Source: Candidatus Bathyarchaeia archaeon
Lineage (GTDB): Archaea > Thermoproteota > Bathyarchaeia > TCS64
Assembly: GCA_050014495.1 (NCBI GenBank)
Contig: JBEKDF010000005.1
Coordinates: 32,001 to 96,000 of the forward strand
Length of the DNA stretch: 64,000 bases
Reading direction: 5' to 3'
The notes under the pieces are model-generated. The model had not been told where the DNA came from. It was given only the letters and a program-made list of their open reading frames with translations, and made no database searches. This document shows positions 13,393 through 64,000 of this stretch, piece by piece. Made by a program: the position numbers and the translations under genes. Every line of letters begins with the position of its first letter. Position 1 is the stretch's first letter.

Positions 13393-13597
13393 GGGAAATC
13401 TTCAGCGTTCTCGGTATGTAATATTTTGGCATGATTCTGACCTTTTAACTGGATCAATTCAATATCTTTAGGCTAAACCACCGGGACATTCGGTGGAATG
13501 AAGCTCGCTGGGAAAAGGCCCTCACGCCTGTTACGATAAAGGGCAATTATGTTCAACAGGGAAAGGTCGCGCGCGCGAATTATTTAAAATTGATGAG

Positions 13598-50551: not shown

Positions 50552-50610
50552 ATCTATTTGTTTTCAAGATAGGGAACACTAATCCAATTACTTTCTTGAG
50601 TCGCGCGCGC

Positions 50611-51894
50611 TGGCTCGTCCCTAAAATATGCACACACCCAGCAGCCACCAAAACTTAAAGAACAAAATCACCAAACCGACGACCCAAGTGACCACCAATC
50701 AGCCAAACGAGCACACGGCCAGCACAGCAACCCCCAGAAAACGGACGAACCCACGCAGACAAGCAGAACACACACTAGCCACACCACGCAGACCCGAGAC
50801 CAGCCCTCACACGTTAAAGAACGTTGGAGACAACGCCTTATCCGGCCTACCCAGATTCTCCGCCGCCTCCCTGTTCAACACAAGGCACAGCACACTCAGC
50901 AACGCGTAGACACCCACGTTCACCAAGCCCCGAACCCTGTTCACCGTCAACCCATACTGGTTCTTCACGAAGGCGAACAGCGCCTCAACAGCAGGCCTCT
51001 TCCTGTACTCGGCCACCAGCTCCGCCGGACCATGAGTCCTGAACCACCTGTCCACCCGGAGCACATCCTCCCCACGCTGGTTAGCCGTGTACGGGATCAC
51101 CGTCCGCTCCGCCAGGCCCCTGACCCTACGGCTGCTGTACTGGCTGTCCCCGATCAGGCACCTGATCCTGGCATCGGCCCAACCCAGCACCGCCCTCGTC
51201 CTATCCACAAGCCACGGCGCGTGCCTCTTCTCGTTCTCGTTCGCCGGAGCCATCACCGCGGCCAGCGGCAGGATACGCCTCGGCTCCACCGAAGTGTGAA
51301 GCTTGTACCCGAGACCGTAGCTCCTCCCGTTCCTGCCTACACGCGCATCCGGGTCCGAGAGACCAATCTGGTTGTCTGCTGGGTTTCTGATGCTCCAAGC
51401 CTTAAGGAAGCTGGCGTCGAGGACCACATCCACCTCTGTGACTCCGCTTCTCCTGAGGAGCATTATGACCTTCTCCTCGATGATTAGCCTCAGCGTCTCT
51501 GCTCCGACTCTGTGGGTGAAGCGGCTGATGACTGACCTCGGGTAGCCGCCCTCGTCAGTCTCTATTAGGCAGAGCCGTCTAATGCGCTGGTCTATGTCGA
51601 GGATCCTGGTGAGCTCCCGTAGGCTGCGGATTCCCTTCAATCGCATTATGAGGAGGGCTCTGAGGATGCCGAGTGGGTTCCTCGGTGGTCTTCCGGGTCC
51701 GGTTGTGTGGTAGCAGCCGAGTAGCTGCTTCTGGGCAATGCTTAAGTCGACGTTTCTAAAGAGTGTTTCAAGGGTCTCGTGTTCATCTTGTCCTAAGTGA
51801 ACTCACCTCCTAGGGTTGGACAGACCATTTGGGGACGAGACCCCAACTGTTAAGATAAGCTTATTCTAGCCTGGATGAATTTCGGGACAGGCCA
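50611..51894 (-). mobile_element. Insertion sequence (~1.28 kb, IS5/IS1182-like DDE) with imperfect terminal inverted repeats
   Basis: Left end TGGCTCGTCCCTAAAAT versus right end reverse complement TGGCCTGTCCCGAAATT (13/17 match); GCGCGCGC on both flanks. Confidence 0.85.
50807..51796 (-). CDS. DDE transposase
   Basis: GRPP N-terminal motif upstream of ATG 51646, DAS, GYKLH, GDSQY, R..VE..F...K; frame open to 51802. Confidence 0.88.
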   Translation of the reverse strand, partial: LGQDEHETLETLFRNVDLSIAQKQLLGCYHTTGPGRPPRNPLGILRALLIMRLKGIRSLRELTRILDIDQRIRRLCLIETDEGGYPRSVISRFTHRVGAETLRLIIEEKVIMLLRRSGVTEVDVVLDASFLKAWSIRNPADNQIGLSDPDARVGRNGRSYGLGYKLHTSVEPRRILPLAAVMAPANENEKRHAPWLVDRTRAVLGWADARIRCLIGDSQYSSRRVRGLAERTVIPYTANQRGEDVLRVDRWFRTHGPAELVAEYRKRPAVEALFAFVKNQYGLTVNRVRGLVNVGVYALLSVLCLVLNREAAENLGRPDKALSPTFFNV

Positions 51895-52135
51895 GCGCGC
51901 GCATATATAAACTGAAGCGATCCACACTTTCGACTATAATCACTATATGAATTAACCATTTGATTCAATTCATCAATTTGGCAGCGGGAGCCAGCCTGCT
52001 ATTACTAGTTCTTCGCGTACACCGAGTTATCAGCTGCCATTGACAACTATAAAGGGGGATAATGGTTCTCCTTTAATAACAGTTATTAAATCCATAATGG
52101 GATAATTTATTAGCTTGCAAAGTCTCCTTAATCCT

Positions 52136-53380
52136 ATGGCAAAAAGAGAATACAAGTCTATTTCTCAACATCTGGGGCAATTTTCAAGCCCCAGAACCAA
52201 AATGACGTACCTCTCTGGGATTGGTGGCTTTTTCCGATTCATCAACCCCGATGTGAAGGACTTGGATGCCTACTCTATTTCTTACTTGAAGTCACATTCT
52301 CAGAGCCAAATCGAGTCTGACATAGTGAAGTTTCGAGACTCGATGTTGACCAGAGTAGCAAAGACCAGAACAGGGTACTTGAAATCGACTCTGGGATTCT
52401 TCGATGCGAATGATGTAACTTTCAAACGGAACTGGAAAAACAACATTATCGGTAAAGATACCACGGCTGTTTCTGAAGAAAGTATACCCACACAACAGGA
52501 ACTTGAGAGGATTCTAAACTTTATGCCGCTAATTGGCAAGGCAATAACCCTTTTTCTTTGCAGCTCCGGTGTGCGTGTAGGTGAACTACTCCAACTCAAA
52601 GAATCCAATATTGACCTCACGAAAAACCCAGTAATGGTAACTCTACCAGCCTCCATTACTAAGACCAAGAAAAAACGAGTGACATTCATCTCGATGGAAG
52701 CAAAGAAGATGCTTCAGGAGTGGTTGGAATACAAACCAAAGTGGCTGGAAACAACATCGACCAAAAGCCCCACACCCTTTGACACGACCCGTATATTCCC
52801 ATTAACCGACAACGGATACCGAGAGCTTTGGGATCGTGCTGTTGAGAAAGCCAAGTTAGCGGAGAAAGATCAGACAACAAACCGACTTCAACGCAGAATT
52901 CACGCACTGCGGAAATTCTTCAGGACTTACGGCAAGTGGCAACAACCAGACATAGCGGAAGCCCTGATGGGTCATTTGGGTGGCATAGAAGAAATCTATA
53001 CTAGATTCACAGAGAACCAGCTTAGAGAAGCCTACCTTACGGCGGAACCAAATTTGACCATTGTGGGTTCAGCGCCGAATCTGAAGGAGTTAGAGGCAAA
53101 GGTTGAGGCTAGGTATCAGGGTGTGGACAAGTTAATTGCTGATCTGTCAATCAAGAACCAAAGATTGGAAAATATTATTCAGAAAAGGGACACAGAGTAC
53201 AAAGAAATGATGGAAATCGCATTGAAACCATACTTGGAAACTTTTTCAACACTTAAAGATAGGGTAGATGCACAAGAGTTGGAAATTGACAATATGAGAA
53301 AGGCAGGGGAACTTCGGGATCAAGAAGAGGTATTGAAAATAATACCAGCGGAACTAAAAATTAAAAAAGATGAAGTGTAA
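52136..53380 (+). CDS. Tyrosine recombinase/integrase with C-terminal coiled coil
   Basis: Catalytic set SGVR.GE, TK.K, HALRKFF, LMGH, Y; visibly more AT-rich than the core genes. Confidence 0.92.
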   Translation: MAKREYKSISQHLGQFSSPRTKMTYLSGIGGFFRFINPDVKDLDAYSISYLKSHSQSQIESDIVKFRDSMLTRVAKTRTGYLKSTLGFFDANDVTFKRNWKNNIIGKDTTAVSEESIPTQQELERILNFMPLIGKAITLFLCSSGVRVGELLQLKESNIDLTKNPVMVTLPASITKTKKKRVTFISMEAKKMLQEWLEYKPKWLETTSTKSPTPFDTTRIFPLTDNGYRELWDRAVEKAKLAEKDQTTNRLQRRIHALRKFFRTYGKWQQPDIAEALMGHLGGIEEIYTRFTENQLREAYLTAEPNLTIVGSAPNLKELEAKVEARYQGVDKLIADLSIKNQRLENIIQKRDTEYKEMMEIALKPYLETFSTLKDRVDAQELEIDNMRKAGELRDQEEVLKIIPAELKIKKDEV

Positions 53381-57753: not shown

Positions 57754-58677
57754 CTATTTCTTAAAATAAAGAACTTTCATACCCGTGTCCCCGATTGAAT
57801 CCTTCAGCATTGTGTCATAATGCACCTTCTCAGGCAGATCGTAGGACACGTAGACCGCCATAGTGAGCTTATCCCTCCAATTTGCTAGTGCAGCCTCCCA
57901 ACCATTTACTCTTAAATATTCAGCGAGCTGCCTAGGGCTAAATCTCTGCCCAGTCACTCCATTTGCGTTTTGGAGGGCTAGAAAGCTCCAAGCCTCCGAG
58001 AATGCCTCAACCATTTCGTCGTCACTTGCATAACCTGACCTCACATCTTCAGGCAATTTAGCCTCATCACCCGGCTTGAGTCTGCTGGGCTTAAGCCTTT
58101 TACCCTCAGTGGCGGCTACACTAAGTGAGTTCACAGCGACATTATACTGATAGAGTTCCATGGCCAGGCACTGTGTTAGGCCCTCTAAACCATACTTTGA
58201 CGGGCAATACGCTGTCTCAGCGACAAAGCCCCTTGTCGCAGACCCAGAGGAGATATTCATAATGCTGCCTTTTCCCTGCTTCTTCATCATTGGCAGGAAT
58301 AATTTACTGAGTATGAACGGTGCACGCAGATTAATTGAAATCGATCTGTCCCATTCCTCAATCGTCGTCTCCTCGAAGAGTTTCCAGAGATTATCCGCTG
58401 CACAATTTACCAGCGTATCTATTCTCCCATACTCATTCTCAATAAGATCCCTTAGTCTCGTAATATCCTCCATCTTAGTTAGGTCGGTGGGAAGAATTGA
58501 ACAAGTACCCTCCCACCCTTTTAGATCAATGTTCTCCTTAAGAGCCTTCAATTCATCTAGGGAACGAGATGCAGCTACAACCTTGGCGCCTTGGGAAACA
58601 AGTCCCATGCACAGGTACTTACCATAACCGCGCCCAGCACCAGTAAGGACGACCACCTTGCCACTTAGTCTACCCAT
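57754..58677 (-). CDS. Short-chain dehydrogenase/reductase with C-terminal extension
   Basis: TGAGRGYG, LVNCA, NISS, YCPSK. Confidence 0.9.
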   Translation of the reverse strand: MGRLSGKVVVLTGAGRGYGKYLCMGLVSQGAKVVAASRSLDELKALKENIDLKGWEGTCSILPTDLTKMEDITRLRDLIENEYGRIDTLVNCAADNLWKLFEETTIEEWDRSISINLRAPFILSKLFLPMMKKQGKGSIMNISSGSATRGFVAETAYCPSKYGLEGLTQCLAMELYQYNVAVNSLSVAATEGKRLKPSRLKPGDEAKLPEDVRSGYASDDEMVEAFSEAWSFLALQNANGVTGQRFSPRQLAEYLRVNGWEAALANWRDKLTMAVYVSYDLPEKVHYDTMLKDSIGDTGMKVLYFKK

Positions 58678-58990
58678 AAAAGCCACGAGTTTTCCTAAAT
58701 GTACCTAGCTTTTAAAATTATTGCCTAAATAGTCAGCGATCAGATCGACAATCTATTTTTATTTATAATATCAAAAAAAACCATTATTGATGTGAGTTCT
58801 TAACACTATTATGAAAAAAGGATCTGATTTTCCAATGCCTCATAAAAATAAATAATAGATTAATGGAAAAATATGATAAATAGTTGATGAAAAACTTATT
58901 TAGTTATTATAATTATTTAATAACGGATAGGACGCGCACCTCTTCATACCAGCTAGTGTCGTACGCCAAGTTATCGCCCTATCCAAATAA

Positions 58991-62982: not shown

Positions 62983-63137
62983 TACTTAAACACTAATAGA
63001 ATTGAGAATAAAACTCTTCTCGAGCGCGTTTCCAGTAGGGCGTGCATACCCTGTAGATATTTTCTCAACATACTATCGATTTGTCGAGTGAGCAGAGGGG
63101 GCCTCTGCGTTGTGTGAGGGATAAGATTATGGTGGAT

Positions 63138-63896
63138 CTATTTCTTAAAGTATAGAACCTTCATCCCAATATCGCCGATCGTGTCCTTCAGCATGGTATC
63201 ATAGTAGACCTTCTCGGGTAGATCATAGGACACGTAGACCGCCTTTGTGAGCTTATCCCTCCAGTTAGCAACAGCAGCCTCCCAGCCATTAGCCCTCAGG
63301 TAATCAGCGAGCTGTATGGGGCGAATCTCTGACCGGTGATACCATGCGCGTTTTGGAGGGCTAGGAAACTCTAGGCCTCTGAGAAGTTCCCAACCATCTC
63401 ATCGTCGCTAGCAAACTTTAACCTCAACTCCTCAGATAACTTGGTCTCGTCACTCAGTGTGAGTCTGCTTGGTTTAAGCCTCTTACCCTCAAGGGCGCTC
63501 ACACTGAGTGAATTCACTGCGACATTGTACTGGTAGAGCTCCATCGCCAGGCACTGGGTTAAGCCCTCTAACCCATACTTTGATGGGCAATACGCTATCT
63601 CAGCGACGAAGCCTGTCGTCGCAGACCCAGAGGAGATGTTTACGATGCTACCCTTGCCCTGCTTCTTCATCATGGGCAGAAACAACTTAACACAAATGGT
63701 GCACGAAGGTTGATCGAGATCGACCTATCCCACTCCTCGATAGTGCGCGCGCGAATCCTTCAAAGCCTTCAACTCCGCCAGGGAACGAGACGCGGCTACG
63801 ACGTCGGCACTCTCAGAAGCAAGTCCCATAGACAAATACTTACCATAACCACGTCCAGCACCCATCACATGGACCACTCTGCCAAAGTCTACCCAT
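63138..63896 (-). pseudogene. Decayed paralogue of the SDR at 57754-58677
   Basis: Collinear similarity from promoter to stop; TGG>TAG at 63371-63373, frameshifts and a ~169-nt internal deletion. Confidence 0.9.
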
Positions 63897-64000
63897 TAAA
63901 GCCACGACACTCTAAAATGTCACCAGCTTTTAAAATGATTACTGAAAAAAAATATGAGTCACTCGCGCATGGGCATTGCTGTTGAAACCGAGAGGTGTAA

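Follow-up and report, generated by a model that had tools for sequence, protein, structure and literature searches.

The alternating G-C run in a short-chain dehydrogenase (SDR) pseudogene of a Bathyarchaeia archaeon was interpreted, with a probability of roughly two in three, as new DNA at a deletion joint, written during end joining when a host polymerase extends broken ends with tails of self-complementary dinucleotides. Such patches, which are found hundreds of times per genome, are likely to be scars from an undescribed mode of end rejoining and not marks of jumping genes. The window, the whole stretch of 64,000 nucleotides that was analysed, belongs to the host genome G000 (Bathyarchaeia, peat, 3.1 Mb), and the other G numbers denote genomes of the same class. 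The compared sequences were taken to show that new alternating bases stand at deletion joints, with short microhomology and without the target word of an insertion sequence (IS).

The SDR pseudogene (63138..63896, minus strand) was delimited by alignment to an intact SDR paralogue of 310 aa with the Pfam domain adh_short (57754..58686, minus strand), at 78% identity. Compared to the paralogue, its lesions were a deletion of about 165 nt with filler, deletions of 2, 4 and 1 nt, and an in-frame stop at 63371-63373. GCGCGCGCG occupies 63745-63753, and the sides flanking this run are separated by 167 nt of the aligned paralogue. The sequence-only reading had proposed a deletion of about 169 nt replaced by an 11-nt tract; the deletion held, and the sizes were corrected to about 165 nt and 7 nt since CGAA (63752..63755, Ser and Asp codons on the minus strand) is host sequence, the CG of which overlaps the run by 2 nt. 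It had also stated that the paralogue has no such tract at either breakpoint, and indeed neither GCGC nor CGCG was found within the paralogue's 169-nt interval 58366-58534. The event was put at about 165 nt (55 codons, if the orthologue had the length of the paralogue) replaced by 7 nt at 63745-63751. This filler, GCGCGCG, whose first G may be host-derived, is absent from the paralogue and, at the right break, from a sister-strain orthologue; at most one of its bases would be templated and 6-7 alternating bases are probably new. Just left of the pseudogene (window near 63118-63130) lies one copy of a dispersed GGATAAG..TA-core repeat, which separates many short ORFs and breaks the assembly (G000 contigs C50, C72, C74, C75, C77, C84, C88 and C92).

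The comparison at the junction was based on X4, L043 and X15, while X16, X17, X18 and X21 were uninformative there. A contig of X4, another peat sample, covers 63100-63940 with 0 differences, so that 63743-63755, where read support had been asked about, is spanned unchanged by contigs; the metagenome contig L043, whose site or sample of origin may be that of the genome itself, matches it at 100% identity over 20,312 nt, and 10 of the 24 listed sequencing runs contain at least half of the region's words. All of this support consists of assembled contigs, and X4 and L043 may share habitat or campaign with G000. A sequencing or assembly artefact, which the use of assembled contigs throughout would allow, was nevertheless considered hardly credible, since X4 and L043 have the same junction, C>T and G>A variants occur between alleles within runs, and runs avoid ORFs.

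X15, a freshwater sample, carries a sister strain that is about 95% identical (on the SDR pseudogene, 12 of 243 nt and 6 of 79 nt differ). The fit of its contig starts at 63752 and runs on for 156 more letters into the deleted part; this extension reads D-S-I-E-K-R-G-G-T-C-V-L in the frame of the gene, and part of it fits the paralogue's deleted part. The right break of the sister-strain orthologue offers just CG+AA and no GC run, and the 1-nt deletion near 63317 is absent from X15. Because X15 continues into the deleted part and is free of this 1-nt deletion, CGAA was assigned to the host and the deletion was judged to be recent. At the left break, a GC run could have pre-existed only if Arg or Ala-Arg preceded T-I-E-E-W, and neither did so in any of the 24 rows covering the site in a tblastn set of 25 rows, some of them duplicates of one locus; the residue before the T-I-E-E-W-type motif in these homologues was Thr, Val, Met or Ser. 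As the homologue codons are never Arg, at most one base was likely templated here, and the left break of the true orthologue probably had no GC run, the X15 contigs reaching the right break only. The proposal that the tract arose with the junction was supported in this way, by observation at the right parent end and in the other sample that spans the site, and by inference at the left end.

Similar replacements were found at other loci, and microhomology at the resolved junctions was 0-3 nt. At C33:31598 of G000, inside an IS copy, 455 nt were replaced by 10 nt, for which the IS copies could have templated at most 3 nt on the left (25 rows) and at most 1 nt on the right (29 rows); at C14:4047, 317 nt were replaced by 8 nt, and at C58:3361, 185 nt by 14 nt. 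G106, a genome of 39% GC from another family that was available as a scaffold with 306 gaps, contains duplicated allele pairs with flanks of 97-99% identity. In one pair, 20 nt were replaced by a 15-nt run between 99% flanks, and in another 24 nt were replaced by A plus a 10-nt run, the parent being free of the run in both. In these two events and at C33 both parent ends could be read, and the inserted bases were lacking there. In G106, too, 9 nt stand in place of 2061 deleted nt, with 5 of the 9 templated, and the deletion at G106:1336387 ends in an older, existing run. The filler is not a fixed word, because a 26-nt patch of G106 mixes GC and TA units and because self-complementary dinucleotides after runs exceeded the controls (52% vs 27% in G106, 35% vs 25% in G000). 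Excluded from the junctions were C9:85303, where 7 nt replace 7 nt, and further 7-8-mers of unchanged length within genes, all of which looked like chance codon variants. Of the pieces that lie between paired runs in G000, few (4 of 114) had a full copy at another place in the genome. In G021, unrelated pieces of 75, 76, 75 and 91 nt (L083, L084, L085 and L082) each lie between two GC runs and resemble captured fragments of similar size. A 120-nt segment occurs twice in G000 (C25:23488 and C25:30758) at 96% identity, and both copies end in the same 10-nt run and then diverge.

In a one-sided test of G000, a parent-like copy was available at 36 of 889 run ends. Microhomology there measured 0 nt at 11 ends, 1 nt at 12, 2 nt at 6, 4-5 nt at 4 and 7-10 nt at 3, the last being shared runs, and one of the 11 ends with zero microhomology was also a shared, mutated run. 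Little microhomology (0-2 nt) was therefore the rule (29 of 36), with breakpoints at unrelated sequences; thus the breakpoints were not GCGCGC sites, yet matches of 1-2 nt exceeded the chance expectation of about 25%. A plain microhomology deletion between GC runs that already existed, with no new synthesis, would agree with the deletions that end in an existing run (G106:1336387, and the 4-5-nt matches at 4 of 36 ends), and the left break of the orthologue is known only through homologues. It is still very improbable, given CG alone at the right parent end, homologue codons that exclude a left run, and the 20- and 24-nt parents of G106 without any run. The earlier reading had named GCGC microhomology at both ends of the intact orthologue as the sign of such a deletion, and it was absent, at the right end by direct observation and at the left end judging from homologues. 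When G000 was compared with 408 kb of G002, none of the indels (0 of 17 and 0 of 2) carried a run; within G000 a run accompanied 2 of 36 indel rows, most of the 36 coming from a single repeat-cassette family, and in the G106 allele pairs 3 of 4 indels. Some deletions take another route, and most between-species indels carry no run.

The CG runs of 7, 8, 9 and 10 nt in G000 numbered 186, 192, 144 and 111, and only 12 were longer; AT runs of 8, 9 and 10 nt numbered 67, 7 and 5. ORFs cover 82% of this genome but hold only 70 of the 447 CG runs of 8-10 nt, and GCGCGCGC was observed 126 times in non-coding DNA vs about 3 expected. The length profile was the same in G106, with 432 runs of at least 8 nt. 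Over 401 genomes of the class, nine-mer counts ranged from 0 to 508 and were patchy within genera. The base that follows C-ended runs differed by lineage (T in 79% of cases in G106, A in 62% in G000). It was confirmed that the string of the pseudogene recurs at 13570-13580, overlapping a 10-nt CG run (13568..13577) in a gap of about 165 nt where relatives have 1.7-4.9 kb between the same anchor genes; the AAT tail of the shared string was put down to chance, as AAT follows 10 of 314 such runs genome-wide and is host sequence at 63754-63756. Old scars decay: interior transitions in G000 amounted to 76-97 per position and transversions to 18-42. Decay of GC runs in G000 and in the G106 allele pairs was mainly by C>T and G>A, at about 2-4 times the transversion counts, an excess for which cytosine methylation or plain mutation bias could account. 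The cliff above 10 nt may reflect an instability of longer CG runs, counting by the enzyme or the overlap of tails. The flat lengths of 6-10 nt with this cliff, the excess of G-start, C-end forms in G000 (146 vs 46 eight-mers, 78 vs 33 ten-mers) and the short unrelated pieces between paired runs in G021 would also be expected if a free short palindromic duplex, such as a by-product of primase or polymerase, were ligated or annealed as a splint. This capture of an oligonucleotide is quite unlikely, as no oligonucleotide source was found, and synthesis on the ends accounts at least as well for the bias towards 1-2-nt microhomology and for the variable, mixed filler.

An IS5-like insertion sequence with DUF772 and DDE_Tnp_1, a 329-aa frame and inverted ends of the TGGC..GTCCC type lies at 50611..51894 (minus strand). 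It is bordered by a 9-nt CG run on the left (50602..50610), 6 nt of which are already in the IS-free X15 allele, and by an 8-nt GC run on the right (51895..51902), of which only the last C aligns in X15. That allele joins 50607 to 51902, with CGCGCG on the left and 54 other letters in place of the IS. We take the element to belong to the ISH1 group of the IS5 family, judged by the ISH1 end sequence, and it shares with this group a DUF772 and DDE_Tnp_1 transposase, a length of about 1.1-1.3 kb and similar inverted ends. It differs in its strict GCGCGC flanks and in that only 1 of 57 copies is compatible with an 8-bp duplication, and it is a neighbour element, not itself a scar. The flank of 57 full copies from many genomes was GCGCGC, with C at position -1 of 114/114 ends and G at -6 of 101/114; several splits into tip and duplication fit these copies, and a flank-in-gene test yielded 0 usable sites of 65. 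Directly next to the IS, a tyrosine integrase (PF00589, window 52115-53380) stands at the edge of the accessory region in which both SDR copies lie. The same IS with GCGCGC flanks also occurred in bins titled Dehalococcoidia and Patescibacteria (L097 and L100), which may reflect misbinning or transfer.

These flanks raise the possibility of a transposon footprint, in which an IS with GC tips inserts, deletes adjacent DNA and is lost, so that its fused tips remain as a 6-10-nt run. It would explain why 53 IS ends in G000 adjoin runs of at least 6 nt, the strict C and G of the flank, and the loss of 54 nt beside the window IS; if two tips of 6 nt overlapped by 2-6 nt, runs of 6, 8 or 10 nt would result, in keeping with the cliff above 10. 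The flank runs of full G000 copies total 17-18 nt in 3 of 5 cases, which insertion into a 10-mer hardly gives. However, IS presence was unrelated to run load: a transposase match was found in 8 of 20 run-rich vs 8 of 20 run-poor genomes, in panels of mostly fragmented assemblies whose IS copies could be unassembled, and G401 has 7 IS loci yet only 5 nine-mers and 8 eight-mers, while the IS-bearing G402 and G404 have 4 and 10 eight-mers. The parent breakpoints (the pseudogene right end, the one-sided set, the G106 pairs and C33) did not show the IS flank word, CGCGCG was already present in the IS-free X15 allele, and fillers of 13-15 nt and mixed GC/TA patches misfit fixed tips. A footprint was therefore considered unlikely, though it keeps a real minority share. 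No repeated element end was found beside the 432 runs of the gapped G106 scaffold, which has one 36-aa transposase scrap. In 4 of 5 run-poor genomes WAGCGCGCTW was in slight excess (7-19 vs 0-4); this word also flanks their IS copies, and short scars or chance targets could each account for the excess. Against written filler counts that one word is common to IS tips and runs and that their lineage-specific outer bases agree. Most likely the IS targets the scars as landing sites. In three different IS subfamilies (G000 C17:58775 and C48:7091; L019/L093 in G012) the IS5-like inverted end is adjoined not by GCGCGC but immediately by a second element, which ends in ...CATACCGTC and may target the tip of the first IS.

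In the written-filler model, broken ends would be trimmed back, and their 3' ends would be extended by reiterative self-templated addition of G-C, sometimes A-T or T-A, for which a terminal G, C or CG would often be the seed. Any two tails could anneal because (GC)n is its own complement, and fill-in and ligation would leave a run of 6-10 nt. The GCGCGC-flanked IS would then land on the scars and may cause some of the breaks. Against this model stands the patchy run load (0 to 508), which no enzyme among those examined tracks; a patchily distributed writer gene may exist.

Ku and LigD-Pol are encoded in G000, G011, G016 and the run-free G001 (0 hits) but were not found in the run-rich single-contig G021 (182 hits), among 5 genomes examined, and were rejected as writer. 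PolX fitted a 5-genome panel and failed across 401 genomes: it is present in the run-free G001, G010 and G058 and in all 6 genomes of family f4, and no match was found in 11 of 20 run-rich panel genomes. The PolX gene of G106 (L225) is split into two frames. A reverse transcriptase was found in none of 5 genomes, Y-family polymerase was missing from G000 and all 14 other f1 genomes examined, PolB matched alike in 5 genomes, and NurA, present in genomes free of runs, was not found in the run-rich G363, G217 and G119; all were dismissed. Among the proteins common to G000 and G106, a motif scan brought up no further clear candidate. PriS was found in 50 of 51 genomes, run-free ones included, and between 16 run-rich and 16 run-poor genomes no PriS residue discriminated better than in shuffled data (0.56 vs a 95th percentile of 0.625); in G000 the neighbour of priS resembles priL in both position and sequence. 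Provided that the filler is written, the replicative primase PriSL may tentatively be named as the lead candidate, with a chance of clearly less than one half, solely because it is present throughout and because terminal transfer and GC-favoured end annealing are known for it in Sulfolobales. Two extra primase-like (PF01896) proteins of G000 are not shared with G106 (C20:26047-27366 and C53:7058-7864).

On a broader view, held somewhat short of an even chance, many Bathyarchaeia would mend their chromosomes through an enzyme whose alternating, self-complementary tails, of at most about 10 nt, act as universal sticky ends; it would join any two ends without homology, drive deletion and capture in accessory DNA, and have left landing pads for a specialised IS clade. 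To our knowledge, archaeal double-strand-break repair without Ku/LigD is an open question, and a probable repair product can be read here at hundreds of sites in a genome, together with recent pairs of parent and product. The pseudogene site supplies a parent allele at strain level, and the genome panels weaken the IS reading. The alternating-GC filler is a precise signature for an assay on purified enzymes, the runs may serve as a marker of recent rearrangements in an abundant uncultured lineage, and the whole points to a possible homology-free joining activity and to a case of an IS aiming at repair scars.

Filler-writing end joining is known, whereas the alternating-GC signature was not found described in the literature searched; no paper on GC-run scars in Bathyarchaeia was found there, most subscription journals and supplements lying outside its coverage. 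Ku/LigD end joining in Methanocella and mycobacteria produces deletions with non-templated additions. The scars resemble it in such additions at deletions, and G000 encodes Ku and LigD-Pol, but this system is also present in run-free G001 and was not found in run-rich G021. Among eukaryotic enzymes, TdT makes N-additions and Pol theta makes insertions. Pol mu performs dinucleotide expansion at end-joining ends, according to the available part of PMC3592450. These three share with the scars reiterative synthesis at joined ends; here, however, PolX does not track the runs and the filler consists of self-complementary dinucleotides only. In Saccharolobus islandicus, PriSL carries out primase-promoted MMEJ (pp-MMEJ), with terminal transfer, annealing on 2-4 GC pairs and mostly 1-2-bp indels (PMC12019639, available text, in which GCGC does not occur), and SsoPriSL performs the PADT reaction in vitro (PMC3333859, available text). 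This spectrum of 1-2-bp indels and single-C insertions was not matched by our fillers of 6-15 nt at deletions of 20-2061 nt, small indels lying outside the survey. In the portions of both papers at hand the in vitro tails are G runs, and 6-10-nt alternating palindromic filler at 20-2000-nt deletions does not appear. The likeness, as far as these portions go, is that of an archaeal joining route that does without Ku, transfers nucleotides terminally, anneals through 2-4 GC pairs and favours C in its insertions (PMC12019639, PMC3333859).
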